Shown: one piece after another, positions 840 through 64,000 of the stretch
How positions within the stretch are numbered: the stretch's first letter is position 1
How the letters are laid out: each line of letters opens with the position of its first letter
Source: an uncultured bacterium
GTDB taxonomy: Bacteria; Babelota; Babeliae; Babelales; Babelaceae
Length of the DNA stretch: 64,000 bases
Direction of reading: 5' to 3'
Assembly: GCA_963717435.1 (NCBI GenBank)
Contig: OY970332.1
Location: 256,001-320,000, forward strand
Notes under the pieces: generated by a model
Database searches by the model: none
What the model was told of the DNA's origin: nothing
The model's input: only the letters and a program-made list of their open reading frames with translations
Position numbers and translations under genes: made by a program

Positions 840-2393
840 GTGTTAAAATTAATTAAGTTATCTCTTATTTTATTAATCAGTTTATTTTTCTCAAATATCT
901 CAAATACAACTTGTACAAGCCAAGAACAAGATAATTATCAAAATTTTTTTATGGGCGCATATAAGCACAGAACGGGAAAAACAAAAGCAGCCCAAGATAA
1001 CTTTGATAAATTTTTTGCCTCAAATAAAACTCCAAATAAGCAAGCTTATAGCGAATATTTGAATTTTTTGTTTGAAACAAAGCAATATAGCAAATTTGAA
1101 TCGGTTTTAAACTCTCATGCAGATATGTTCAAAGATGACGAGAAAATTCAACTTTACCATGCTGCTATCTTAAAAAATTTGGGTGCCAAACAAAAAGCGC
1201 AGTCTATATATCAAAATTTATCACGCCAGTTTCCACAAAACCAAGAAATTGCTTACGAACTTATTTTAAATCTCATAGAAGATAAAAACTACGATGCGGC
1301 GCTTAAAATTTTGCAAAAACTTTTACAAGAGAATATTGCTGCAAATGCAAATTATATTTTTCATCTAATAGCCTGCAAAATTTATATCTCGCTTGGGAAG
1401 TTAAGCTCAGCAAAAAGTTCTGTAGAATCAGCTTTAAATTTGTACCCGCAGTCGGGAGAAAGCTGGCTCATGTTTGCGCTAATAAATCAAGAATTAAACG
1501 ATCTTAACGATGCAATTTACGGTTATAGTAGATTTTTGGATATATCTGGAAAAAATAAATCTATAGAAAGTGAACTTTTAAAATTAAAACTTAGGCGTCA
1601 TTCACTTTCGCAATCGAATCTGGCTGAGAGCTTACTCGCATACAATTCAAAAAATTATAAGCAGGCGCTAATATATTTAGAAAATGTTTTGAAAGACGAC
1701 CCGGGCTCAATAGAAGCAAAACTTTTAAAAATCGAAATCTTAATAACTTTAGGTGATTTGCAAAAAGCCCTAAATATTATGGAAAAAGAGATAGAATCAG
1801 GTGAAAATGAAAAAATCTGGCTTGAATTATTATATTTGATATTTCAATATACAAAAGACACAAAAGATAAAAATCTTGTAATTAAAAATCTAAAACAAAT
1901 CTTAAAAAATACTGGTAAAAGCTTGCTGGTTAATTTATATGGCGCAGATATCTTTTTTAAAATCGATGATAATATTAATGGCATAAAATATGCAGAAAAA
2001 GCGCTTCGAAATACTGATAACTTAGAACTTAAATCAAAAATAATTTACCAGATTGCAACTATATATTATCAAGATAAAGATTACAAAAAGCTTAATAATA
2101 TACTTGATAAAAATATATTATTAAAAACAGATTACGCGCCGTTATTAAATTTAGCTGCTTATTATTTTGCTACCAAGGGAAAAAACTTAGAGCTTGCCCA
2201 AAAACTTCTTGATAAGGCTTTAAAAATCGATCCGAAAAATCTGCACTATTTAGATACTAAAGCTAAAATCTTGTATAAACAGAAAAAATATAAAGAAAGC
2301 TTGGAAATTCTTGAAAAAATAGCAAAACTATTACCTGAAGATAAATTTGTTAAAATTAATCTTGAAAAAACTAGAAGCAAGCTAGCAAATTAA
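840..2393 (+). CDS. Tetratricopeptide-repeat protein with signal peptide
   Basis: Hydrophobic N-terminus; many TPR helices; C-terminal LNLAAYYFA...ALKIDPKNLHYLDTKAKILYKQ. Confidence 0.8.
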   Translation: MLKLIKLSLILLISLFFSNISNTTCTSQEQDNYQNFFMGAYKHRTGKTKAAQDNFDKFFASNKTPNKQAYSEYLNFLFETKQYSKFESVLNSHADMFKDDEKIQLYHAAILKNLGAKQKAQSIYQNLSRQFPQNQEIAYELILNLIEDKNYDAALKILQKLLQENIAANANYIFHLIACKIYISLGKLSSAKSSVESALNLYPQSGESWLMFALINQELNDLNDAIYGYSRFLDISGKNKSIESELLKLKLRRHSLSQSNLAESLLAYNSKNYKQALIYLENVLKDDPGSIEAKLLKIEILITLGDLQKALNIMEKEIESGENEKIWLELLYLIFQYTKDTKDKNLVIKNLKQILKNTGKSLLVNLYGADIFFKIDDNINGIKYAEKALRNTDNLELKSKIIYQIATIYYQDKDYKKLNNILDKNILLKTDYAPLLNLAAYYFATKGKNLELAQKLLDKALKIDPKNLHYLDTKAKILYKQKKYKESLEILEKIAKLLPEDKFVKINLEKTRSKLAN

Positions 2394-2399
2394 CGCATA

Positions 2400-2461
2400 C
2401 CCCGACCCTTCGATACATTCTTCTTCGCCAAGGCGTCGAAGAACACTCAGGGCGAGCGGGG
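2400..2461 (-). repeat. Palindromic element copy A (intergenic)
   Basis: Reverse complement reads CCCGCTCGCCCTGAGTG-hairpin-TGTATCGAAGGG, matching the other copies in the window. Confidence 0.9.
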
Positions 2462-2522
2462 CTTACGAGCAAAAGTTTTTGCTAAATTTAAAAGTAAATT
2501 TAAAAACTTAATTAGAGAAAAT

Positions 2523-6148: not shown

Positions 6149-6574
6149 ATGAACAAAGCAAATAATCTAAACCTGAGCCCCTATTTTATCGCAACTGCTA
6201 TATTTATCGCAGATCTGATATTTATGTCATTATCAGGTAGGCCGTTTACATATATGACAAGAGAAGCTTATTATCTTGACTGCTTTGACCAGATTTCTAT
6301 ACCCAGGAGAATATTTTTTTTGCTGTTGGTTATAACCCAGTCACTTATATTTGGCTTTCGCCTGTTTTATGACTTTATATTAATAATTATAATTAATTTA
6401 TTGGGGTTAGTTTTTGCTAAATTTATAAACCATTCTTATCTGTCAGGCTATCTCATAGCCTCAGGATTAATGCTTATTACGGGTATCTTTTTAAAGCTAC
6501 CATGGACAATTTTAAGCGTAACTGTTAATCTAATTTTAATATATTTTGTAATAAAATATCTCAAGGCAACCTAG
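6149..6574 (+). CDS. Small multi-pass membrane protein (possibly MreD-like)
   Basis: 141 aa, about four hydrophobic segments; divergent from PBP1A; family not certain. Confidence 0.55.
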   Translation: MNKANNLNLSPYFIATAIFIADLIFMSLSGRPFTYMTREAYYLDCFDQISIPRRIFFLLLVITQSLIFGFRLFYDFILIIIINLLGLVFAKFINHSYLSGYLIASGLMLITGIFLKLPWTILSVTVNLILIYFVIKYLKAT

Positions 6575-6934
6575 GCGATCGCTATAAAAAGTTAAAATGT
6601 TTTATAGAGGAAAGTCCGGACTCCAAACGAAAATGACACCTTTGACCCAACTATGCAAATAATGGGTCTTAGGAGGGCGTAAGTCCATGGAAAGTGCCAC
6701 AGAAAAGAACCGCCTTTATTATTTATATTAGGGGTAAGGGTGAAAATGGGTGGTAAGAGCACCCAGTAACAGATAGTAATATTTTGTTAAGGGCAAACCC
6801 TGTCAGGAGCAAGACAAAATAAGTAGTGTACGTTTTTTCGTTACGATTTAAACATACGGGTATGTCGCTAAGATAAATGGTTGCTAATAAATATAAATAT
6901 TTATACAGAATCCGGCTTATTGGTTACCTTGAGA
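6559..6934 (+). ncRNA. rnpB: RNase P RNA (bacterial)
   Basis: Conserved GAGGAAAGTCCGGACT, GAAAGTGCCACAGAAA, GGTAAGGGTGAAA, GGTAAGAGC, GGCAAACCC, ACAGAATCCGGCTTAT; P1 = TCTCAAGGCAACC (6559-6571) / GGTTACCTTGAGA (6922-6934). Confidence 0.96.
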
Positions 6935-6967
6935 ATTTTCTTAAAATCTTAAGAATTTAAAGAGAAG

Positions 6968-11858: not shown

Positions 11859-12941
11859 TCAAAAAAGTTTTGAAATTAAAGTCTCAACTTTAAAGTTATT
11901 GTAAACGATATTATATATCGCTTTGCATATTGGCAGATCTAGATTATTTTTTTCAAGAATTTCATTTATAGATTTTATAGTATTAGCGCCTTCGGGCACA
12001 AAATTCACCTCTTTTAAAATATCACAGATTTTTTCACCGCGGCCTATATTAAAGCCCACCTGTTTGTTACGCCCCTGCGACATAAATGCAGTCAAAACAA
12101 GGTCCCCAATCCCGGAAAGCAAATAAACTGATTCTGGATTACCGCCAAAATATTTTATTAGAGTTTTTATTTCGTTTATCGACTTATAAAAAAACAGCGC
12201 TTTGGTATTATCACTGTACCCGCACCCATCTAAAATTCCGACACCTAATGCTATTACGTTTTTAACTGCCCCGGCAACCTGAACGCCTATTATATCTTCT
12301 GTAAATTCAAGATAAATATTTAGCCCACCACCGCTCGATACATTTTTCTCAGCTTCGCCTTCGAAAACCACTCGGGGCGAGCGGGGACGAGTAAAATTCT
12401 GATCTGACAATTTGTTGTCAAACTTGTTATTAAGAATCTCAGAAATCGAAGTTGTAGCTGATTTGTCTTTTGATGCCAAAACTAAACCTGTTGGGTTTAA
12501 AAGTGCCAAATCAACAGCAAAGCTTGGGCCCGAAATTACAACAAGTTTTGCTTTAGAATTTATTTTTTCTATAACCTGAGTTGGCAAATCAAAACTACTG
12601 CCTGTCGTGCTGTTGGCAAGACCCTTGGTGAGCACACAAATAATTTTATTACCTAAAGAATCTGCTATATCGCGCAAGCTTGAATGCAAAAACTGCGCAG
12701 GAATAGCTTCAAAAATAATATCAGTATTATTTAATGCAGATTTAATATCTGTCGTGGCAAAAATTTTAGAATCTAGCTTAATATTGGGCAAATAAATATT
12801 ATTAGTTCTAGTTTTGATTATCTCATCATAAACTGTGCTGTTATAGCACCATAAATTAACTTCGTATCCATTTGAGGCAATAAATTGCGCAAATGCTGTT
12901 CCAAAGGCTCCATCACCGAGTACACATATCCGTTTTTTCAT
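11859..12941 (-). CDS. gpsA: NAD(P)H-dependent glycerol-3-phosphate dehydrogenase (with in-frame palindromic insert)
   Basis: GDGAFGTA, TKGL, ISGPSFA, GAVKNVIA, GIGDLVLT, GRN motifs. Confidence 0.95.
   Translation of the reverse strand: MKKRICVLGDGAFGTAFAQFIASNGYEVNLWCYNSTVYDEIIKTRTNNIYLPNIKLDSKIFATTDIKSALNNTDIIFEAIPAQFLHSSLRDIADSLGNKIICVLTKGLANSTTGSSFDLPTQVIEKINSKAKLVVISGPSFAVDLALLNPTGLVLASKDKSATTSISEILNNKFDNKLSDQNFTRPRSPRVVFEGEAEKNVSSGGGLNIYLEFTEDIIGVQVAGAVKNVIALGVGILDGCGYSDNTKALFFYKSINEIKTLIKYFGGNPESVYLLSGIGDLVLTAFMSQGRNKQVGFNIGRGEKICDILKEVNFVPEGANTIKSINEILEKNNLDLPICKAIYNIVYNNFKVETLISKLF
12324..12386 (-). repeat. Palindromic element copy B, in frame in gpsA
   Basis: 63 nt encoding PRSPRVVFEGEAEKNVSSGGG (codons 186-206). 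Confidence 0.9.
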
Positions 12942-14628: not shown

Positions 14629-14641
14629 GAGAGAAAAGCAT

Positions 14642-14738
14642 CCCGGCACCCTTCGATACATTCTTCTTCGCCAACCTGTTCTTCGAAGTTCGTAGAACGT
14701 AGTAGAAGGCTTCGAAGAACACTCAGGGCGAGCGCCGG
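14642..14738 (-). repeat. Palindromic element copy C with nested 33-nt hairpin
   Basis: Closely matches copy A apart from an insertion at 14675-14707. Confidence 0.9.
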
Positions 14739-14759
14739 ACGGCTATCGAACCTTAAAAA

Positions 14760-15579: not shown

Positions 15580-16260
15580 GTGAAAAATATGAAAAGAGAA
15601 TTTAAGGCAATAATTTTTGATATGGACGGCACAATTGTCGACACCGAACATATCTGGGTCAACGCGACCAATCATCTAATACGTAGCAAAGTTGCCCACT
15701 ATCCTGATGATTTACAAAAAGAAGTAAATAGACAAACTCACGGGCTGGCTATACATAAAAGCTGCAAGATTATAAAAGATTTGATGAAACTTGAAGATAC
15801 ACTTGAAAGTTTAATGCAAGAAAAATCTAATATAGCTTCAAGCCTGTATCAGGACGGAATTAAATTTATAGAAGGGTTTCAGGAGTTTCACGAGCTTGTA
15901 CTGTCTCATGATCTAAAAACTGGTATAGCAACCAATGCTGATGACAGAACTTTAACAATCACCAACGAAAAGTTGCGACTTGATAGATTTTTCGGAGAAC
16001 ACATATACAACATTTCCCATGTTAACAACGTCTGTAAGCCAGATCCAGCTGTGTATTTACACGCAGCAAAACAGCTTGAAATAGACCCTCTATATTGCAT
16101 AGCAATCGAAGACTCTGCACATGGCGTTAAGGCTGCAAAAGCTGCCGGCATGTACTGTATTGGGATTAACACCCATGGCAAGCCTGAGCAGATAAAAGAA
16201 GCTGACGAGATTGTTAACAAATTTTCAGAAATCAATTTAAAAAAATTATTAAATAAGTAA
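15580..16260 (+). CDS. HAD-superfamily phosphatase (beta-PGM/YqaB-like)
   Basis: FDMDGTIVDT, ATN, KPDP, IEDSAHGVKAAKAAG; ATG at 15589 is an alternative start. Confidence 0.92.
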   Translation: MKNMKREFKAIIFDMDGTIVDTEHIWVNATNHLIRSKVAHYPDDLQKEVNRQTHGLAIHKSCKIIKDLMKLEDTLESLMQEKSNIASSLYQDGIKFIEGFQEFHELVLSHDLKTGIATNADDRTLTITNEKLRLDRFFGEHIYNISHVNNVCKPDPAVYLHAAKQLEIDPLYCIAIEDSAHGVKAAKAAGMYCIGINTHGKPEQIKEADEIVNKFSEINLKKLLNK

Positions 16261-16267
16261 CACGACT

Positions 16268-16330
16268 CTCCGCTCGCCCTGAGTGTTCTTCAAAGCCTTG
16301 GCGAAGAAGAACGTATCGAAGGGGAAGGGG
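16268..16330 (+). repeat. Palindromic element copy D (intergenic)
   Basis: CCGCTCGCCCTGAGTG-TTCTTC..GCCTTGGC..GAAGAA-CGTATCGAAGGGG. Confidence 0.9.
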
Positions 16331-16340
16331 ATAAAATAAC

Positions 16341-17045
16341 ATGAACGAACTAATATTTTTTATATACGTGATAATCTTAAGCGCAAGTTCGATTTTTGCT
16401 TTAAACTTGTCAAAAACTGCCCTTATAAGCTTTATTAGCTTGCAAGCTGTTCTGGCCAATTTATTTGTGACAAAACAGATAGTATTATTTGGGTTTATCG
16501 CGACAGCATCAGATGCATTGGCAGTTGGCTGCACACTCGGGCTTAATTTGGTTCAAGAATATTATGGAAAAACTGAAGCCCAAAAAGCTGTTAACGCAAG
16601 TTTTTTTACTCTTATTATTTACACTATTTTATCCCAACTTCACTTGAATTATATCCCTGCAAACTCAGATATTTCCCAAACATGCTACAATTTAATTTTA
16701 TCTGGCATGCCAAGAATTATAGTTGCATCTTTAACAGCTTATTTTGTTAGCCAAAATTTAGACTGCTGGCTCTACGCAAAGCTTCAAGAAAAGTTTAAGC
16801 ATAAAAATTTTACCTTAAAAAATTATATTTCAGTTTCTATTACCCAGCTACTGGACACAGTTATTTTTACTTTCTTAGGGCTGTATAAATTAAATTCAAG
16901 TTTTGAATCGATTAACACTATGTATCAAATAATATTTGTAAGTTATACTATAAAAATAACAACTATTTTGATTTCAGCCCCAGTTTTGACAATTTTTAAA
17001 AAACTAGCAAACAAAGCAAATAAAATAAGCAACACAGACAACTAA
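16341..17045 (+). CDS. yhhQ: Queuosine-precursor transporter (YhhQ/VUT family)
   Basis: ANLFVTKQI, QEYYGK, PRIIVASLTAYFVSQNLD, SITQLLDTVIF; directly upstream of tgt. Confidence 0.88.
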   Translation: MNELIFFIYVIILSASSIFALNLSKTALISFISLQAVLANLFVTKQIVLFGFIATASDALAVGCTLGLNLVQEYYGKTEAQKAVNASFFTLIIYTILSQLHLNYIPANSDISQTCYNLILSGMPRIIVASLTAYFVSQNLDCWLYAKLQEKFKHKNFTLKNYISVSITQLLDTVIFTFLGLYKLNSSFESINTMYQIIFVSYTIKITTILISAPVLTIFKKLANKANKISNTDN

Positions 17046-17048
17046 GAT

Positions 17049-18209
17049 ATGCAAGATAAAACCAACAGCAATTTCTCAAATAATTTTTTCAAATTTGAAA
17101 TTGTTCACCAATCAAAAAAATCTCGCGCTCGCGTCGGAAGAATTCACACTCCGCACGGGATAATTAACACCCCAGATTTTGTCGCAGTTGGCACAAATGG
17201 GACACTAAAAGCTGTCGAATCAAATATTGTTAATGATCTTGGTTTGCAACTAATGTTCTGTAACACTTATCACTTATTATTGCACCCGGGTCCTGATGTT
17301 GTAAAATCAGCAGGCGGGTTGCATAAATTTATTAACAGAAAACAGCCAATAATCACCGATTCTGGTGGATTTCAAGTTTTTAGTTTGTCTTACGGAACTG
17401 TAAAAGATGAGCTAAAAAGTAAGGGTCAAAAAAAACAAAATGGCTCAGTTGTAAAAATAACAGAAGAAGGCGTAATTTTTAGGTCTTATAGAGACGGCGA
17501 GCAAATATTATTAACTCCAGAGACATCTATACAAACCCAAAAATCTCTTGGCGCCGATATTATTATCCCCCTTGATGAGTTGCCTCCATATCATGTTGAA
17601 AAAAAATATTTAAAAAATTCTTTGGATAGAACCCACAGATGGGAAAAACGCTCACTTGATGAACATAAGAAAAATATTAATAATCAAGCGATATATTCTG
17701 TTATTCACGGTGGAATAGATCCAGAATTACGTTCACTAAGTTGCAAAATTTTAACAAATTTGGATTTTGATGGTTTTGCAATTGGTGGAAGCTTAGGAAA
17801 AAACAGGCAAGAGATGTTTGAAATGTTAAAATATTTGATGCCACAAATTCCTGAAGATAAGCCAAATCACTTACTTGGGATTGGCGATCTTGAATCGATT
17901 CCTGAAATTATTAAACTTGGCATAGATACTTTTGACAGCTCACATCCAACAAAGTGCGCACGTCATGGATTATTGTTTACTAAAAACAAAAATCTTAAAA
18001 TACTTCATGGCGAATATAAACGAGATTTTGGACCGATAGACGCAACTTGCAGCTGCATTGCTTGCACAAATTACTCACGAGCGTATATTCATCATCTTTT
18101 TAAAGCAAAAGAGATGACAGGCATAATTTTGGCAACAATTCATAATTTAGCTTTTATGATAGAATTAATGAAAAATTATAGAAACAATATTTTGGAGGAT
18201 TTAATCTAA
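17049..18209 (+). CDS. tgt: tRNA-guanine transglycosylase (Chlamydia-like)
   Basis: NTYHL, TDSGGFQVFSL, HLLGIG, DTFDS, Zn site CSCIAC...HN. Confidence 0.97.
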   Translation: MQDKTNSNFSNNFFKFEIVHQSKKSRARVGRIHTPHGIINTPDFVAVGTNGTLKAVESNIVNDLGLQLMFCNTYHLLLHPGPDVVKSAGGLHKFINRKQPIITDSGGFQVFSLSYGTVKDELKSKGQKKQNGSVVKITEEGVIFRSYRDGEQILLTPETSIQTQKSLGADIIIPLDELPPYHVEKKYLKNSLDRTHRWEKRSLDEHKKNINNQAIYSVIHGGIDPELRSLSCKILTNLDFDGFAIGGSLGKNRQEMFEMLKYLMPQIPEDKPNHLLGIGDLESIPEIIKLGIDTFDSSHPTKCARHGLLFTKNKNLKILHGEYKRDFGPIDATCSCIACTNYSRAYIHHLFKAKEMTGIILATIHNLAFMIELMKNYRNNILEDLI

Positions 18210-19039
18210 TGTTAAAAATAAATACTATATCAAACGAAACAGTAAAAGAACTTGTAAAATTACAACAAGCAAAATACAGGGCACAAGCGGGCCTATGCGT
18301 CGTTGAAGGCCAACGCGCAATCGAAACTTTTTTAAATTCAAAGCGATATGCGCTACACACGCTTTATATAACTTTTGAAAATCTTGAAGTTGCAAAAAGT
18401 TTGGTGGACAAAGAAAAAGTTACTATAGTTGCCCCTATGGTCATGAACAAAATAAGCTCTGCTACTACACCTAGTGGCTTACTTGCTGTATTTAAAGTAG
18501 GTAAGGCTATGCAAAAAGTTGGTGAATCAGGAATCCCGCTCGTCCCGAGTGTTTTTCGAAGCGAAGCTGAGAAAAATGTATCGAGGGATGTTGCGGCCAA
18601 GTCGGGTGTTGTTCTTGCGGGCATATCTGATCCAGGAAATATGGGGACATTAATTAGAACTGCTGCAGCTATTGGCATGAAAAATGTTGTGATAGTAGGC
18701 GGCGCTGATTGCTGGAGCCCTAAAGTTATTCAAGCAAGCGCAGGGACCATATCTATGGTTAATATTATTCAAACAACCTGGCAAGACTTAGTAGCAAGTA
18801 AAAACAAAAATAAAAGCAAACTTATCGGCTTGATAGTAACCGGCGGAAAAAAAATCTCAGAACTTGATAAAGCAGATTTGAAAAATAGTTTAATTGTTAT
18901 AGGCTCAGAGGCGCATGGAATCGATTCTGATAGACTAAAAGACTGCGACGAACTGGTTACGCTTGAAATGCCAGGACAAACTGAAAGTCTTAACGCTGCT
19001 GTTGCTGGTTCTATCGCTATGTATTTAATAAATATTTAA
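18209..19039 (+). CDS. TrmH/SpoU-family RNA 2'-O-methyltransferase (with in-frame palindromic insert)
   Basis: DPGNMGTLIRTA, GSEAHG, ESLNAAVA SPOUT motifs. Confidence 0.93.
   Translation: MLKINTISNETVKELVKLQQAKYRAQAGLCVVEGQRAIETFLNSKRYALHTLYITFENLEVAKSLVDKEKVTIVAPMVMNKISSATTPSGLLAVFKVGKAMQKVGESGIPLVPSVFRSEAEKNVSRDVAAKSGVVLAGISDPGNMGTLIRTAAAIGMKNVVIVGGADCWSPKVIQASAGTISMVNIIQTTWQDLVASKNKNKSKLIGLIVTGGKKISELDKADLKNSLIVIGSEAHGIDSDRLKDCDELVTLEMPGQTESLNAAVAGSIAMYLINI
18535..18596 (+). repeat. Palindromic element copy E, in frame in TrmH-family gene
   Basis: Encodes PLVPSVFRSEAEKNVSRDVA in the inter-domain linker. Confidence 0.9.
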
Positions 19040-27135: not shown

Positions 27136-29076
27136 GTGGTTATTTCTTTTTGGGGGCAATTTTTAATGGTAAATCTAGAGCTTAATAATAATTTTGATGT
27201 AATCGTCGTTGGTGGTGGTCATGCCGGAATTGAAGCAGCTTATGCGGCTGCAAGGTTGGGCTGCAAAACTCTTCTTGTGACCTTAGACATTAATAAAATT
27301 GGTCTTATGCCATGTAATCCTGCAATCGGTGGTATTGGAAAAGGGCATATAGTCTATGAGATTGGTGCGCTTGGCGGCCTTATGCCTCAACTTTGCACGC
27401 AAACTTATCTGCAAGCCCGTATGCTAAACACTCGAAAAGGGCCCGCTGTTCAAGGTTTAAGATTACAAATAGATAAAATTGCTTATAGCAAACTTAGCCA
27501 AGAATATTTAAAGAAAACTGAAAATTTAACTCTGCTTTCTAGTATGGTAGAAGAGTTGATAGTAGAACCCAGCTGCGATAAAAACCCGCTCGTCCCGAGT
27601 GTTCTACGAAGCGCTAGCGAAGTAGAAAGTATCGAGGGGCGTGGCACGAAAATTACTGGAATTAAGACAAGAGATGGGCAAATTTATAATGCACCGACTG
27701 TAATTATTACTACAGGAACATTTTTAAATGGCCTAATTCATGTTGGTCAGACAAATAAAACTGCCGGAAGACAGGGCGAAGAAGCGGCTGTAAATCTTTC
27801 AACAAGTATAGCAAAACTTGGCCTAAAAATGGGAAGACTAAAAACTGGAACCCCTGCAAGATTATTGCGATCCAGTATAGATTTTAGCGTAATGGAAGCA
27901 CAGGGCTCAGACGAGCTTACACACCTGTTTGAGTTTTACCCGCATAAAGTTACAGGCAAAATGGACTGCTATATAACTTTTACCAACGAGAATACTCATC
28001 AAGTTATAAAAAATAATTTTGAATTATCGCCCATATTTACTGGGCATATTAAGGGTACTCCGCCTAGATATTGCCCTTCTCTTGAAGACAAAATTTCAAG
28101 ATTTGCTGACAAAAATTCCCATCATGTTTTTGTTGAACCTGAAAGTGCTTCTAACGACGAAATATACCCCAATGGGCTTTCTACATCTATGCCACTAGAG
28201 GTTCAAGAAAAATTTATTAGAACAATTAAGGGCTTTGAAAATGCTGTGATTGTCAGACCGGGATACGCAGTAGAATATGATTTTGTTGCACCAAATCAGC
28301 TTAAACACACACTTGAAGTCAAAACTGTTAGTGGTTTATTTCTAGCGGGTCAAATTAACGGGACAACAGGATACGAAGAGGCTGCTGGTCAAGGGATAAT
28401 TGCGGGTATTAACGCAGCATTAAAAGTGCAAAATAAGCCTGAGTTTATTTTTGATAGAAACATAGGCTATATTGGGATCATGATCGACGATCTTGTTCTG
28501 TTGGGCGTAGACGAGCCTTATAGAATGTTTACGTCACGCGCTGAAAGAAGATTAATTTTAAGACAAGATAACGTATACCACAGACTTGGAAAAATATCTT
28601 ACGAACTTGGGTTAATATCTGAGAGCTTATATTCTGATATTCAAAAAGAAAAAGATATGGTTGATGAAGCTGTAAAGCAGATTAAATCTAGCAAAAAAAA
28701 TGTAGAAATAATGCAATTGCTAACTAATGGCAAATTAGAAGAAGCAAAAAAGATTATGCTTGAATGCGCAACTGGCGAAATTACTGAACGTGCCCTTCAG
28801 AGCATACATGCGGAAGTGTTATATGAGCCCTATTTAAAGCGCGAAGAAAAAGAAGTTGAAAAGTCCCATTATTATCAAACATTAAAAATTCCTGAAAATT
28901 TTGACTATAAAAATATTCCCGGATTGTCGATTGAGCTACAACAAAAACTTAAGAAATTTAAGCCTGCCACAATAAGTCAGGCTGGTTTAATTCAGGGCAT
29001 GACCCCTGCTGCTATATCACTTTTAATTTTTAAAGTTAGAGAATATACTGACTTTAAAAATCACACAACTGCGTGA
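27136..29076 (+). CDS. mnmG: tRNA uridine 5-carboxymethylaminomethyl modification enzyme MnmG (with in-frame palindromic insert)
   Basis: [62 protein letters not shown]; probable start ATG 27166. Confidence 0.97.
27585..27644 (+). repeat. Palindromic element copy F, in frame in mnmG
   Basis: Encodes [20 protein letters not shown]. Confidence 0.9.
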
Positions 29077-29110
29077 TTTTTATTTAAGTAAAATCTTGAT
29101 AGAACCCAAT

Positions 29111-29173
29111 CCCGCTCGTCCCGAGTGCCCGACGCAGCTGAAAGCGTAGACGGGTGTATCGAGGGATGGTGGG
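29111..29173 (+). repeat. Palindromic element copy G (mnmG-lgt spacer)
   Basis: CCCGCTCGTCCCGAGTG-CCCG..CGGG-TGTATCGAGGGATGGTGGG. Confidence 0.9.
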
Positions 29174-29191
29174 CGAAATAAAAATAACTAT

Positions 29192-33724: not shown

Positions 33725-33766
33725 AAAAGTATCGCAGATTACTTTTGTTTAAAACAAGTAAATTTA

Positions 33767-33835
33767 TACACCCGACCCCTCGATACACCCATGCTTCGCC
33801 AAAGCTTCGCAGGGCACTCGGGGTGAGCGGGTGTA
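33767..33835 (-). repeat. Palindromic element copy H (downstream of rpoD)
   Basis: TACACCCG...CGGGTGTA terminal inverted repeat around CCCCTCGATACA...CACTCGGGGTGAGCGGG. Confidence 0.9.
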
Positions 33836-33921
33836 GCGCTTAAGAGATAGTGATTAAAATCTGCGTGAGTTGTAGGTAGTTAAAATTTTGTTTTTATATA
33901 TGTGTTTAAGGGCAAAAAATA

Positions 33922-35240: not shown

Positions 35241-35425
35241 TGGTTCGATACACCCGTCACCCGATCCCGCGCTCGCCCTGAGTGTTTTTCGAACGTAGTG
35301 AGAAAAATGTATCGAAGGGTGCCGGGCACTCCCGCCTACGTTAAAACTACGGCGGACGCAGCACCACGACTTGTGCGTCGTAGCTTGCCAAGCCGGTAGG
35401 CCTGGATAAGCGTAGTCGCAGCGGG
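35241..35425. repeat. Nested composite of palindromic elements (two full copies plus modules 2 and 3)
   Basis: Outer minus-strand copy split into 35241-35255, 35324-35331, 35363-35369, 35420-35425 by three inserts. Confidence 0.8.
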
Positions 35426-44520: not shown

Positions 44521-44552
44521 AATAATTACATCGAGCTCGCACAACGAAGATA

Positions 44553-44616
44553 CCCGCTCATCCCGAGTGTTCTTCGTAGCTTTAGCGAAGAAGAATGTAT
44601 CGAGGGATTGAGCGTG
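44553..44616 (+). repeat. Palindromic element copy J (yraN-cdsA junction)
   Basis: CCCGCTCATCCCGAGTG-hairpin-TGTATCGAGGGATTGAGCG. Confidence 0.9.
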
Positions 44617-45276
44617 AATAATTTAGCAAAGAGAATAACAACGGCAGTGATACTTGGCCCAATTTTTTTGGGCATTATGCTTTTTGCTCCCGCCATAATT
44701 TTTTCATACCTGCTTGCTCTTATTCTTGCGGCGATTTTAATATTCGAGTGGCCCAAGTTGTTCCCAAATAATTTTTTACTAGCCACATTAATTTCTCCAA
44801 TTTACCCCATACTCCCGTTTATATTATTAATTATTCTTAACCAGTCGGGCCCAGATTATAGACCAGTTATATTTTTAATATTCTTTGCAGTATTTGCATT
44901 CGATTCCGGTTCATATTTTGCGGGAAATCTTTTTGGAAAAACTAAAATTTTGCCACAAGTTAGCCCAGGAAAAAGTTGGGAGGGGTTTATCGGCGGAGCC
45001 TCAAGCTGCTATTTAACAGTATTAATTTTTTTTAATTATTCAAAAATTATAAATTTATTTAAATTTTCTCACCAAAATCTACAGCCAAAATTATTACTAA
45101 TCTCGCTAATAATTTCTATACTTGCGCTTATCGGCGATCTATTTGAATCTTATCTTAAACGCAGAGTAAATCTTAAAGACTCTGGCGACATTCTGCCTGG
45201 GCACGGCGGGCTACTTGATCGCTTTGACGCAGTTATGTTCGTTGCATATTTAATTATTTTTTTAAAATTTATTTAA
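44608..45276 (+). CDS. cdsA: Phosphatidate cytidylyltransferase
   Basis: DSGSYFAG, SPGKSWEG, GDLFESYLKR, KDSG..LPGHGGLLDRFD; start TTG 44608 or GTG 44614. Confidence 0.95.
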   Translation: MSVNNLAKRITTAVILGPIFLGIMLFAPAIIFSYLLALILAAILIFEWPKLFPNNFLLATLISPIYPILPFILLIILNQSGPDYRPVIFLIFFAVFAFDSGSYFAGNLFGKTKILPQVSPGKSWEGFIGGASSCYLTVLIFFNYSKIINLFKFSHQNLQPKLLLISLIISILALIGDLFESYLKRRVNLKDSGDILPGHGGLLDRFDAVMFVAYLIIFLKFI

Positions 45277-62125: not shown

Positions 62126-63010
62126 TTAAAGTGGCCTATATGGAGGCAGACTTCGAATGTGGTCATCCATGCGTTTTTGCAAATCAACATCTTTTTTATG
62201 ATCACTAATTGGGTTCATGTCGTTATAAGTGTAAAGAACCTTTGAGATAAATCTAAAATGTCCCCTACTTGCCATTTCTATCATAGGCACCCAGGTTGCC
62301 ATATCACCAGTCATCTGCAAAAATTCTCCATTTATCATTAAATCTTCTTTTTTTATTCTTTTGAATAGCCATGCCCTGCAAGTTCTTAGGTGAGATGGGA
62401 TATGTTTATACCCTCTGAAAAAATTATTCTTATAAACATCTTCTGGCATAGCACGGCAAAAGCCAACTTGTCCGTTAGAAAGATGTTTAAACTGACCGTA
62501 GGTTAACCAAACATTTGGGTCACTATAAACTTCATTTAAATATTTGAAAACTCCCGTGTTGGCCAGTCCGTCGTCTCCATCAACAATAATAATAATATCA
62601 TTATCATTGCATTTCATGATTTCTTCATACTGGTTTTGAAGGGCACCCAATCTTTTTGTATTTGTCCTATACTTGAATTTCGGCCACAAATTTTTCTGAT
62701 TTACATAAGTACGTATAACGTCCTGTTGACCGTCAGTTGAATTATCATCTACATATCTAATTTCATAATTAGAATAATCCTGTGCAAAAATAGTTTTTAA
62801 GCTCCACAAACATGTTACGTGTTGGCCAAGTTGGTCCGTTCTAAAAATTCTATTGTTATTATAAGATGCCATTATAACAACAATTTTTTGCTCCGGTATA
62901 TTCTTGGTACTATCGGCTGAAAAGAGATTAAAAATTGAAAAAATCGATAAGATAGGCCAGAAGAGCGCCGTGATGTAAAAACGCTTTGTATATAATTTTA
63001 AATGCAACAT
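62126..63010 (-). CDS. GT2 glycosyltransferase with hydrophobic N-terminus
   Basis: MASYNN, YVDDNSTD, VDGDD, WLTYGQF, SHLRT; paralog of adjacent ORF. Confidence 0.88.
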   Translation of the reverse strand: MLHLKLYTKRFYITALFWPILSIFSIFNLFSADSTKNIPEQKIVVIMASYNNNRIFRTDQLGQHVTCLWSLKTIFAQDYSNYEIRYVDDNSTDGQQDVIRTYVNQKNLWPKFKYRTNTKRLGALQNQYEEIMKCNDNDIIIIVDGDDGLANTGVFKYLNEVYSDPNVWLTYGQFKHLSNGQVGFCRAMPEDVYKNNFFRGYKHIPSHLRTCRAWLFKRIKKEDLMINGEFLQMTGDMATWVPMIEMASRGHFRFISKVLYTYNDMNPISDHKKDVDLQKRMDDHIRSLPPYRPL

Positions 63011-63031: not shown

Positions 63032-64000
63032 TTACGGTTTACTTTCTAGCGGAGTATAAATTGGCAACTCGTGACGTATATAAAGATCTATGGCACGCTG
63101 CATAGACTTATTTACTCTGTGATCACTTATTGGGTTAGAGTCGTTATACCAATACAAAACATCAGGTATAAATCTAAAATGTCCCTTGCTTGCCATTTCC
63201 ATCATGGGCAACATTAAAGCCATGTCATAGGTCATGGGGAAATAGTCGCCTATATAATTTTTGTCAGGGGTATTAATCCTTTTACCTAGTTCTACAGTAA
63301 CTTTAAGATGTTCTGGTTTTATTCTTTTTGCCAACCAAGCCTTGAACGTTCGCAAATGGGTAGGAATCGTCGGATGGAATCTAAAAGTATTTGCAAGAAC
63401 GACACCTTGCGGCATTTCCTTGTTAAATCCAAGTTCGCCACTATGAAGTTCTTTGTATTGTCCGTAAGTTATCCAGACGTTTTTATCTTTATATACTTCG
63501 TTCAGAAATTGCAAAACCTTGGGATGAGCCAGTCCATCGTCGCCATCCAAAATTAATATTATATCTTCGTCTTTACAGCTATTTATTGCTTCCCACAAAT
63601 TATGCAAAGCAAGCTTTCTCGTCTCATTAATTTGTACGGATATTTTGTGTCCCATATCATGTTGATTGACGTACTCGTTAACATAGTAACCTGTTCTATC
63701 AGGAGATTTGTCATCTATTACTTTCATCTCCCAAGTAAAATCCCCGCCTTCCTGTAGCATTACCGTCTTTATATTAAACTCACAGGTTCTCATCTTATAT
63801 GGAACACCAGGGACATCTATAAAGCCGGCATTTTTGTAAGACGGGGTGATAATCACAAAGTGATTTTTTTCAAGATTTTTATCAAACACCCGACTTGGTT
63901 CTTCCAAATTGAATTCAGGATTTTTCTGAGCATCGAGCTGACCAGCGGAATCTCTGCCGTGCAAATTGGATTCAGGATCTTGTTGAACAGCACATTGCTC
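63032..64000 (-). CDS. GT2 glycosyltransferase (5' end beyond window)
   Basis: TPSYKN, IDDKSPD, LDGDD, WITYGQY, THLRT; frame stays open to the window edge. Confidence 0.88.
   Translation of the reverse strand, partial: EQCAVQQDPESNLHGRDSAGQLDAQKNPEFNLEEPSRVFDKNLEKNHFVIITPSYKNAGFIDVPGVPYKMRTCEFNIKTVMLQEGGDFTWEMKVIDDKSPDRTGYYVNEYVNQHDMGHKISVQINETRKLALHNLWEAINSCKDEDIILILDGDDGLAHPKVLQFLNEVYKDKNVWITYGQYKELHSGELGFNKEMPQGVVLANTFRFHPTIPTHLRTFKAWLAKRIKPEHLKVTVELGKRINTPDKNYIGDYFPMTYDMALMLPMMEMASKGHFRFIPDVLYWYNDSNPISDHRVNKSMQRAIDLYIRHELPIYTPLESKP

Follow-up and report, generated by a model that had tools for sequence, protein, structure and literature searches.

A polar hairpin repeat with covarying stems, probably a selfish mobile element, in the genomes of Dependentiae

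Hairpin repeats in the window

The window, by which we mean the whole 64,000-nucleotide stretch of DNA analyzed here, lies in a genome (G000) that is assembled as a single contig of 1,198,203 bp with 34.6% GC, and for which the marker-based completeness is 88.8% although it is a single contig. It contains eleven copies of a GC-rich imperfect hairpin repeat of 65–80 nt, one of them nested within another, and the copy at 16259–16338 occupies the entire spacer between two ORFs. The pattern GAGTG-N25-40-GTATCGA matches the window eight times against 0.01 expected, and chance is thus excluded as the source of the repeat. About 100 copies are present genome-wide: a looser pattern gives 87 genome matches, 85 of which are evident copies, and an nhmmer profile gives 119 at E<0.01 and 103 at E<1e-6.

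The hairpin is composed of four helices, a variable outer helix (S0), S1 (4 bp), S2 (6–7 bp), and S3 with the apical loop. The helices are parted by two fixed asymmetric junctions, YTCR opposite a single T and GAGTG opposite TGTATCGA, and S2 and S3 are separated by a GNA x GNA 3x3 loop. The outer helix is 5–9 bp long and differs from copy to copy yet stays complementary (e.g. ACACCCG/CGGGTGT, TTGGCCG/CGGCCAA, TGATCCG/CGGATCA, and GATTTTTTA/TAAAAAATC); S0 duplexes formed by the two flanks in cis have a mean of -7.7 kcal/mol compared with -6.4 kcal/mol in trans (p=1e-4). The parts of the copy at 16259–16338 are as follows.

16277–16280 / 16320–16323: S1
16281–16285: GAGTG
16286–16291 / 16306–16311: S2
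16292–16294 / 16303–16305: AAA x GAA loops
16295–16302: S3 and apical loop
16312–16319: CGTATCGA

The window copies are the following.

2391..2470, minus: intergenic; S1 CCCT/AGGG; outer stem AAGCCCCG/CGGGGTAT
12316..12395, minus: inside gpsA (ORF 11859–12941, minus), in frame and sense, separating the N- and C-terminal Pfam domains; S1 CCCC/GCGG
14634..14746, minus: with a 33-nt insertion in the apical loop; S1 CCCT/AGGG
16259..16338, plus: 86.1 bits; fills the 80-nt spacer between ORFs 15580–16260 and 16341–17045, both plus strand
18525..18603, plus: inside a SpoU/TrmH-type rRNA methylase gene (18209–19039), in frame and sense; S1 TCCC/GGGA
27575..27654, plus: inside mnmG (27136–29076), in frame and sense, adding 24 residues in a hairpin turn; S1 TCCC/GGGG
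29101..29181, plus: intergenic, directly after mnmG; S1 TCCC/GGGA; S2 of the CCCGAC type
33761..33841, minus: intergenic; S1 CCCC/GGGG
35241..35372 (end approximate), minus: outer copy, with stem 2 and the apical part replaced by the inner copy; S1 TGGT/ACCA
35258..35334, plus: inner copy, nested in the outer minus-strand copy; S1 CCCT/AGGG
44543..44622, plus: intergenic; 87.0 bits; S1 TCCC/GGGA

Variants of the basic form include 31–33 nt hairpins exactly at the border of S1 and GAGTG, insertions in the apical loop, nested copies, and convergent doublets. The outer copy at 35241 combines two of these: its ACCA adjoins TGTATCGA, and insertion of the inner copy and of a 31-nt hairpin, the latter between S1 and GAGTG (window 35336–35366), has moved the TGGT partner to a distance of about 120 nt. 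Intact relatives of this composite are found at genome 44221, 810370 and 1119505.

Elsewhere, a 33-nt GC-rich hairpin (GGCGAAGTCTTGCACGAAGCCTGG) sits exactly between S1 and GAGTG (genome 882083–882185, 469610–469701, 395942–396040, and 404135–404226), and shortened forms of these copies are found at 477114 and 509339. The 31-nt hairpin of the outer window copy differs from it and occupies the same junction, which seems to be either a preferred insertion point or the site of a three-way-junction variant. We also note a conserved motif of about 30 nt (GTTGAGTTTTACATAAATTG..AAGCAAAACC) that abuts the 5' end of some copies (genome 10587, 193712, 438254, 830778(-), 1066495(-), and 1167895(-)); it is present at one end of doublets and of the GIY-YIG cassette described below, and may extend the element or act as a promoter. 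Other GC-rich repeat families hold pieces of the hairpin motif, either CTGAGTGTATCGAC without S2 or GCTCGTTCCGAG, and adjoin main-family copies; these are at genome 425066, 461162(-) and 371211(-), and in two loci of other genomes (L172 1–100 and L188 2716–2816). A mini version with S1 and TCGA and without S2 is a lineage-specific insertion in genome G252.

Covariation of the stems

A first-pass annotation of this DNA had proposed that the 4-bp stem flanking an invariant GA...ATCGA changes compensatorily, and every S1 pairing it listed is found in the window alignment: CCCT/AGGG in the copies at 16268, 2400, 14640 and inner 35265, TCCC/GGGA at 18534, 29108 and 44552, TCCC/GGGG at 27584, CCCC/GGGG at 33771, and CCCC/GCGG, with one mismatch, at 12325. 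The pair next to the GA is Watson-Crick in all window copies, as had been said, being C-G or T-A, and the inner hairpin likewise covaries around the GNA x GNA loop (TTCTTC/GAAGAA, TTCTAC/GTAGAA, TTTTTC/GAAAAA, and CCCGAC/G(A)CGGG). Among the 85 pattern-defined copies of the genome, S1 is fully Watson-Crick in 75, with seven sequences as listed here; one copy has a G.T wobble and nine have one mismatch, five of which resemble a 1-nt bulge.

TCCC/GGGA: 44 of 85 genome copies
CCCT/AGGG: 19 of 85
TGGT/ACCA: 6 of 85
CCCC/GGGG: 2 of 85
TCCT/AGGA: 2 of 85
TACT/AGTA: 1 of 85
TGCC/GGCA: 1 of 85

A covariance model was constructed from an alignment of ten window copies, with S1, S2 and S3 supplied as its structure, and searched against the window and 36 loci from 11 genomes; pairs were counted in the 73 matches, which represent 11 Dependentiae genomes in all. 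The stem cells are paired in 96.3% of 948 cases compared with 71.8% (sd 0.9) in 500 shuffles, figures to be read with the alignment being fitted to the model structure, which inflates the pairing, and not as probabilities, because copies within a genome are related. Sliding the 3' partner by one to three columns lowers the pairing to 37–59%. Double-sided changes are seen at 14 of 14 pairs, including all four of S1, where 98.6% of cells are paired and where the other genomes add TCTC/GAGA and CTTC/GAAG. The covariation is real and reaches every helix. The junction letters are constant: G25 A26 G27 T28 and T115 A116 T117 C118 A120 (GAGT and TATC..A) are invariant in all 73 copies, and G29, G114 and G119 in 72.

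Strand polarity

The stems contain 26 G.T or T.G pairs and three A.C or C.A pairs (S1 and S2 in G000, and S1, S2 and S3 in the other genomes), a tally that omits the G5-1' pair, itself G.T in 74 of 85 and 54 of 61. Folding of the opposite strand would reverse this excess, and the folding strand is thus the one that reads GAGTG...TATCGA. The earlier proposals of strand polarity and of a single-strand fold distinct from a simple palindrome are therefore borne out by the 26 to 3 ratio and the invariant asymmetric loop of GAGTG opposite TGTATCGA, and by a conserved fold with covarying stems, respectively. Recognition by a protein had also been suggested, and the element is very probably read by one; the strictly conserved, strand-specific loop is most likely its handle, and a putative reader is described below. 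For the copy at 16259–16338, the RNA minimum free energy is -25.6 kcal/mol (z = -2.0), and that of the DNA is -10.5 kcal/mol (z = -0.9), no better than shuffles.

Distribution of the repeat

Counts of the core pattern are uneven across 261 Dependentiae genomes, ranging from 0 to about 85 with most at the control level; by hand count, about 40 of the 261 have at least ten matches, and the top values are 77–85. The covariance model finds 37–80 copies in each of five chosen genomes from four families, and the genomes G053 and G028 have 50 and 77 pattern copies, respectively. G053 is the single high-copy genome with no GIY-YIG match, and its copies (loci L208, L213, L218, L223, L228, and L233) are AT-richer, with about 30% GC, have the lowest scores (36–39 bits), and could be decaying relics. 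Searching 596 Gb of contigs with a pattern too loose for that volume yields at least 120 matches; those listed are nearly all chance matches in unrelated phyla, with one Babeliales MAG, and carry no information on occurrence beyond Dependentiae. Two soil DNA sequencing runs contain small shares of the window, and no RNA sequencing run among those listed contains it.

An Rfam search of the window at gathering thresholds matched RNase P alone and left the hairpin repeat without a match, and a permissive search of 16240–16350 returned chance-level matches only. The RNase P RNA is of bacterial class A (window 6562–6935, plus strand) and is full length, at 213.9 bits. A search of one literature collection, covering palindromic repeats in Dependentiae and related work on GIY-YIG and UPF0213 proteins, found no publication on the hairpin.

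Copies within genes and spacers

Using a simple longest-ORF gene call, in which at least two of the host ORFs are doubtful, ORFs wholly contain 32 of the 103 copies, which occur in every frame, 21 of them sense and 11 antisense. Pfam families are present in 22 of the 23 host ORFs scanned and are mostly those of housekeeping enzymes; the hosts include GpsA, the SpoU methylase, MnmG, RecR, MurB, a transketolase-like enzyme, MnmE, WecB, asparagine synthase, a class I tRNA synthetase, Mur ligases, PGM, MiaA, and glycosyltransferases. At a turn of MnmG, the copy contributes 24 residues that the aligned E. coli protein (9hip) spans with a gap and that are missing from 28 orthologs of the same taxonomic family. 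Genome G005 has a pattern match within a 132-nt gap between alignment pieces of its mnmG, and from this match seems to carry a copy at another site in the gene.

Orientation is evenly divided between co-directional genes (17 sense and 18 antisense), and there is no replication-strand bias of the kind left by single-stranded DNA transposons (27/18 vs 28/30, p=0.32). Target-site duplication leaves no general signal around the 85 solitary copies of G000, where the longest flank repeats average 7.9 nt in cis and 7.7 nt in trans; there are single cases of 15 and 18 nt, the former flush with the copy at genome 178171. Adjacent copies in G000 form 11–12 convergent pairs, four divergent and two tandem by our own count, and the convergent pairs have their 5' ends outward, like the cassette described below minus its gene. 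Solitary copies far outnumber the doublets, and a search of G000 for a split copy flanking a gene found none.

The genome has no match to the RAYT/Y1 HUH transposase family (PF01797). The sole IS-like repeat seen is present in three copies that are 93–100% identical (genome 349438–350590, 618249–619372, and 638295–639418), with a 342-aa ORF read by eye as an rve/DDE-type transposase; as to MITE features, this rve-type IS is the only one seen, and there is no general signal of target-site duplication.

GIY-YIG genes and hairpin-bracketed cassettes

The GIY-YIG matches of G000 are the following.

1066108–1066392: 94-aa ORF, type A, UPF0213-type; matches 1zg2 and 1ywl at E=1e-14
1023036–1023248: 79-aa ORF of a different subtype
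413544–413759: 82-aa ORF of a different subtype
640504–640731: match within a 433-aa open frame
200267–200425: broken type-B gene (one TAG), following at about 100 nt a probable tRNA gene that was recognized by eye through its T-arm (region 200100–200430)

The 94-aa ORF sits between two hairpin copies, 1066021–1066087 (plus) and 1066405–1066474 (minus), with the plus copy ending 21 nt before the ATG, the minus copy starting about 11 nt after the stop codon, and the 5' ends facing outward. It is the only type-A gene among the three intact small GIY-YIG genes of G000 and the only one of them that is bracketed. The protein's match to a model of group I intron endonucleases is weak (E=2.8e-4) and falls below the cut-off.

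This arrangement recurs in other genomes. The 30 best-scoring loci of a phylum-wide Pfam search were examined and their proteins sorted by eye into three groups: 23 of the 30 loci are type A (about 90–100 aa, with the motif ...YILKC.DGSYY.GHTDN...WSRKKKEAL...), six are type B (about 80 aa), and one is other. Eight of the 23 type-A loci (L175, L181, L183, L186, L188, L194, L195, and L200) are bracketed on both sides with the same polarity (model E<=0.01), seven (L177, L178, L179, L180, L189, L196, and L201) have a copy on one side, and in L187 the copies are arranged differently. Bracketing is not seen at any of the 7–8 type-B or other loci at E<=0.01 with the covariance model, nor at the two type-B genes of G000. 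The model finds 43 matches in 91 kb of GIY-YIG loci and two in 131 kb of 29 mnmG loci, a rough enrichment, as the mnmG control loci are from different genomes than the GIY-YIG loci. Spacers of the doublets were considered as relatives of the cassette leader and rejected, the likeness being only low-complexity and AT-rich.

The cassette is present or absent at one site in genus g143, where G252 and G250 have a block of about 690 nt with hairpins between two conserved genes, and G257, G253, G249 and G255 have the flanks, 70–79% identical, without the block. A direct repeat borders the cassette in G250 (TTGCGTAG exact; about 13 nt if two mismatches are allowed), and one copy of this repeat is present at the empty site of G257; in G252, the right-hand hairpin is degraded.

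From these sequence comparisons, the type-A GIY-YIG cassette is tentatively the best candidate for an autonomous form of the element. A broader proposal is more doubtful: that hairpin-GIY-YIG-hairpin units would represent a new class of prokaryotic transposable element in its autonomous form, and that the nuclease would read the folded strand by way of its junctions, including the tandem G.A, and would spread gene-less hairpins genome-wide and into reading frames.

A proposed mode of movement

We propose that the active form of the element is a folded single strand of GAGTG polarity, whether as single-stranded DNA, an extruded cruciform or RNA, and that its stems would be kept by compensatory change because it acts in that form. 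The invariant junctions, including possible tandem G.A pairs, would be what its mobilizing protein recognizes or cleaves by; the candidate for this protein, and the least certain step, is the 94-aa UPF0213-type (type A) GIY-YIG nuclease. The autonomous unit would consist of the GIY-YIG gene and two inverted flanking copies with their 5' ends outward, and it would act in trans on non-autonomous derivatives, namely the solitary hairpins and the convergent doublets that lack the gene. As a whole, and with the GIY-YIG step included, we consider it probable that the element belongs to the selfish mobile DNA of Dependentiae (Babeliales), as a palindromic repeat similar in kind to the Rickettsia palindromic elements (RPEs).

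The hairpins could instead be moved or kept by something besides the GIY-YIG protein, with the nuclease gene a passenger or a free-standing homing endonuclease gene that has the hairpins as its target and not its ends, and with host replication or repair perhaps supplying the true mobilizer, a possibility shared by the RPEs. Gene and element counts do correlate poorly across genomes: G053 has no GIY-YIG match at E<=1e-6 despite its 50 pattern copies (37–50 by the counts taken together), G028 has two matches and 77 copies, and G069, G186, G188 and G234 have 9–11 GIY-YIG matches and 2–3 pattern copies each. The excess of solitary copies over doublets fits this explanation as well, and the passages of a MITE review that describe in-frame RPE insertions name no mobilizing enzyme (PMC10969869). 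However, the polarity and spacing of the brackets recur in nine genomes of several families, the hairpin-gene-hairpin block is present or absent as one unit, and order-wide conservation of the loop needs a conserved reader; we regard movement by another agent as unlikely. The genomes rich in GIY-YIG genes and poor in copies may carry other hairpin families, such as the relative at L188 2716–2816, which has S1 and TCGA without S2.

The internal loop and the kink-turn

The first-pass annotation had likened the fold to a kink-turn, and this holds for the topology, with its AUC bulge, GA opposite GA, and S1 as the non-canonical helix, and not for the standard features of kink-turns. A 3-nt AUC bulge followed by GA, opposite GA, is present at the sequence level in 72–73 of 73 copies. 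The three positions beside the bulge would pair as U.G, G.U and then G5-1', which is GU in 64, GC in four and UA in one of the 73, and Watson-Crick pairs start only at S2, such that a Watson-Crick C helix is not found. The 3b.3n position (columns 24/121) is G-C or A-U in 72 of 73 copies, and the 3n=G or 3b=C of kink-turns that fold in ions is not seen. Searching G000 for the L7Ae family (PF01248) gave no matches; a control search was positive in seven of 14 reference genomes.

A further explanation to be weighed is a genuine RNA kink-turn (C helix, AUC bulge, tandem G.A/A.G, and S1 as the non-canonical helix) that functions within transcripts and has a protein dedicated to binding it. It could, for example, serve the GIY-YIG mRNA as an operator in its 5' leader; the upstream copy there has the sense polarity and precedes the ATG by 10–21 nt. 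Its attractions are the topology, which holds in all 73 copies, the behavior of G5-1' as a pair (GU 64, GC 4, UA 1), the invariant G.U pairs and the G.T excess, which are more at home in RNA, and the polarity of the upstream copy of the cassette, which is the right one. Against this, the bulge-adjacent pairs are invariant U.G, G.U and mostly U.G, whereas the C helix is described as normally Watson-Crick in a source on kink-turn structure (PMC5061560), and the wobble C helix has no covariation support, the loop letters being constant. A Watson-Crick 3b.3n is stated elsewhere to prevent kink-turn folding in metal ions alone (PMC4382518), so ion-only folding is not expected, and protein-induced folding would be the form left to it. 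No L7Ae/YbxF-family gene was found in G000, at an estimated 88.8% completeness in a single contig, the repeat has no Rfam match, and most copies are far from GIY-YIG genes and are antisense as often as sense; since copies are sense and antisense to genes alike and also occur inside ORFs, no role in host RNA fits. Key kink-turn hydrogen bonds need the 2'-OH according to the same structural source (PMC5061560), and a DNA form therefore cannot be a kink-turn. The element thus departs from RNA kink-turns such as Kt-7, box C/D and U4 in that its C helix would open with wobbles, its 3b.3n is Watson-Crick, no L7Ae-family protein was found, and its nucleic acid may be DNA. We consider a kink-turn acting in transcripts improbable, and the label itself is unproven and rather unlikely.

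Other pairings of the loop are available. The minimum free energy structure joins G1-C6' and A2-U5' and bulges the GA, and a tandem sheared GA between the S1 closing pair and G3-C6' is as plausible. The 5'-Y-GA-R-3' context favors sheared GA in DNA. The loop never varies, and covariation therefore cannot choose among these pairings; the G5/1' variants (GC 4, UA 1) support that outermost pair alone.

The last alternative, a host-beneficial element of the REP/BIME kind that serves as an mRNA stabilizer, a terminator, or a gyrase or nucleoid-protein site and is not selfish, is very improbable: it accords with the many copies that occupy short intergenic spacers (e.g. 16261–16340) and with the stable RNA fold (-25.6 kcal/mol, z = -2.0), but 32 of 103 copies are inside ORFs, orientation is random, there is no T-run, copy numbers of relatives range from 0 to about 85, the insertions are lineage-specific, and the DNA fold is no better than shuffles (z = -0.9).

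Relationships to known mobile and palindromic elements

The selfish palindromic repeat that we favor most resembles the RPEs (Ogata et al. 2000), which are described in a MITE review as about 150 bp long and in frame in genes of an AT-rich obligate intracellular host (PMC10969869). Both are short palindromic repeats found between genes and in frame in unrelated metabolic or housekeeping genes that are left unbroken, and both are without a transposase of their own (PMC10969869). The element is a dispersed multi-copy palindrome without its own ORF, and is in frame in intact conserved genes and absent from their orthologs. It differs in being in another phylum, in its probably unrelated sequence, and in its size, 65–80 nt rather than about 150 bp; homology to RPE families is unlikely because of the different phylum and size. 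Further differences are the invariant asymmetric internal loop and covarying stems, kept across a whole order, and the recurrence of the element as a cassette with a GIY-YIG gene.

REP and REPIN sequences are extragenic imperfect hairpins, in part arranged as inverted doublets, that are read as folded polar single strands by RAYT, a Y1 HUH protein, and the single-copy RAYT gene between inverted repeats is the presumed source of their mobility. Imperfect polar hairpins, inverted doublets, and a gene flanked by inverted copies are all features of the element too; it differs in that G000 has no Y1_Tnp/RAYT, the candidate is a GIY-YIG protein, and copies are also in ORFs. Integron attC sites are imperfect palindromes with structure conserved over sequence, and are used as folded single strands in which unpaired bases set the strand choice. 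The element is likewise a structured imperfect palindrome with strand choice, but seems to have no integrase, cassette array, or R/L box consensus.

The GIY-YIG homing endonucleases include the intron-borne I-TevI and the free-standing Seg proteins, whose genes behave as mobile units. The G000 protein is predicted to have the same catalytic fold as these and as the UPF0213 proteins (1zg2, 1ywl), but is the catalytic domain alone, without a DNA-binding domain, and genes of its type are flanked by inverted hairpins and a direct repeat, an arrangement that is transposon-like and not homing-like.

If the proposal is correct, Dependentiae would carry an order-wide analogue of the RPEs with a structure that is far better defined, with four covarying helices and two invariant junctions. 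It would also supply a concrete candidate enzyme, where the RPE sections of the review name none (PMC10969869), and DNA would be mobilized by a new mechanism, with a GIY-YIG nuclease in the role of a structure-guided transposase. The repeats add loops of 20–26 residues to proteins that are mostly in Pfam housekeeping enzyme families, and they fragment or confuse gene calls and RNA-motif scans in Dependentiae MAGs.

Other repeats in the genome

Further repeats were observed. A 131-nt direct repeat is present in the window at 62199–62329 and 63120–63250, with the two copies 73% identical and 921 nt apart. Elsewhere in the genome, the regions 1056976–1063230 and 1098919–1104471 hold an array of four paralogous segments in tandem, each about 1.5 kb long, and an 1850-aa protein composed of many near-identical repeats of about 40–60 aa that contain FTAIAELQNTVTACCAQTQQDF.
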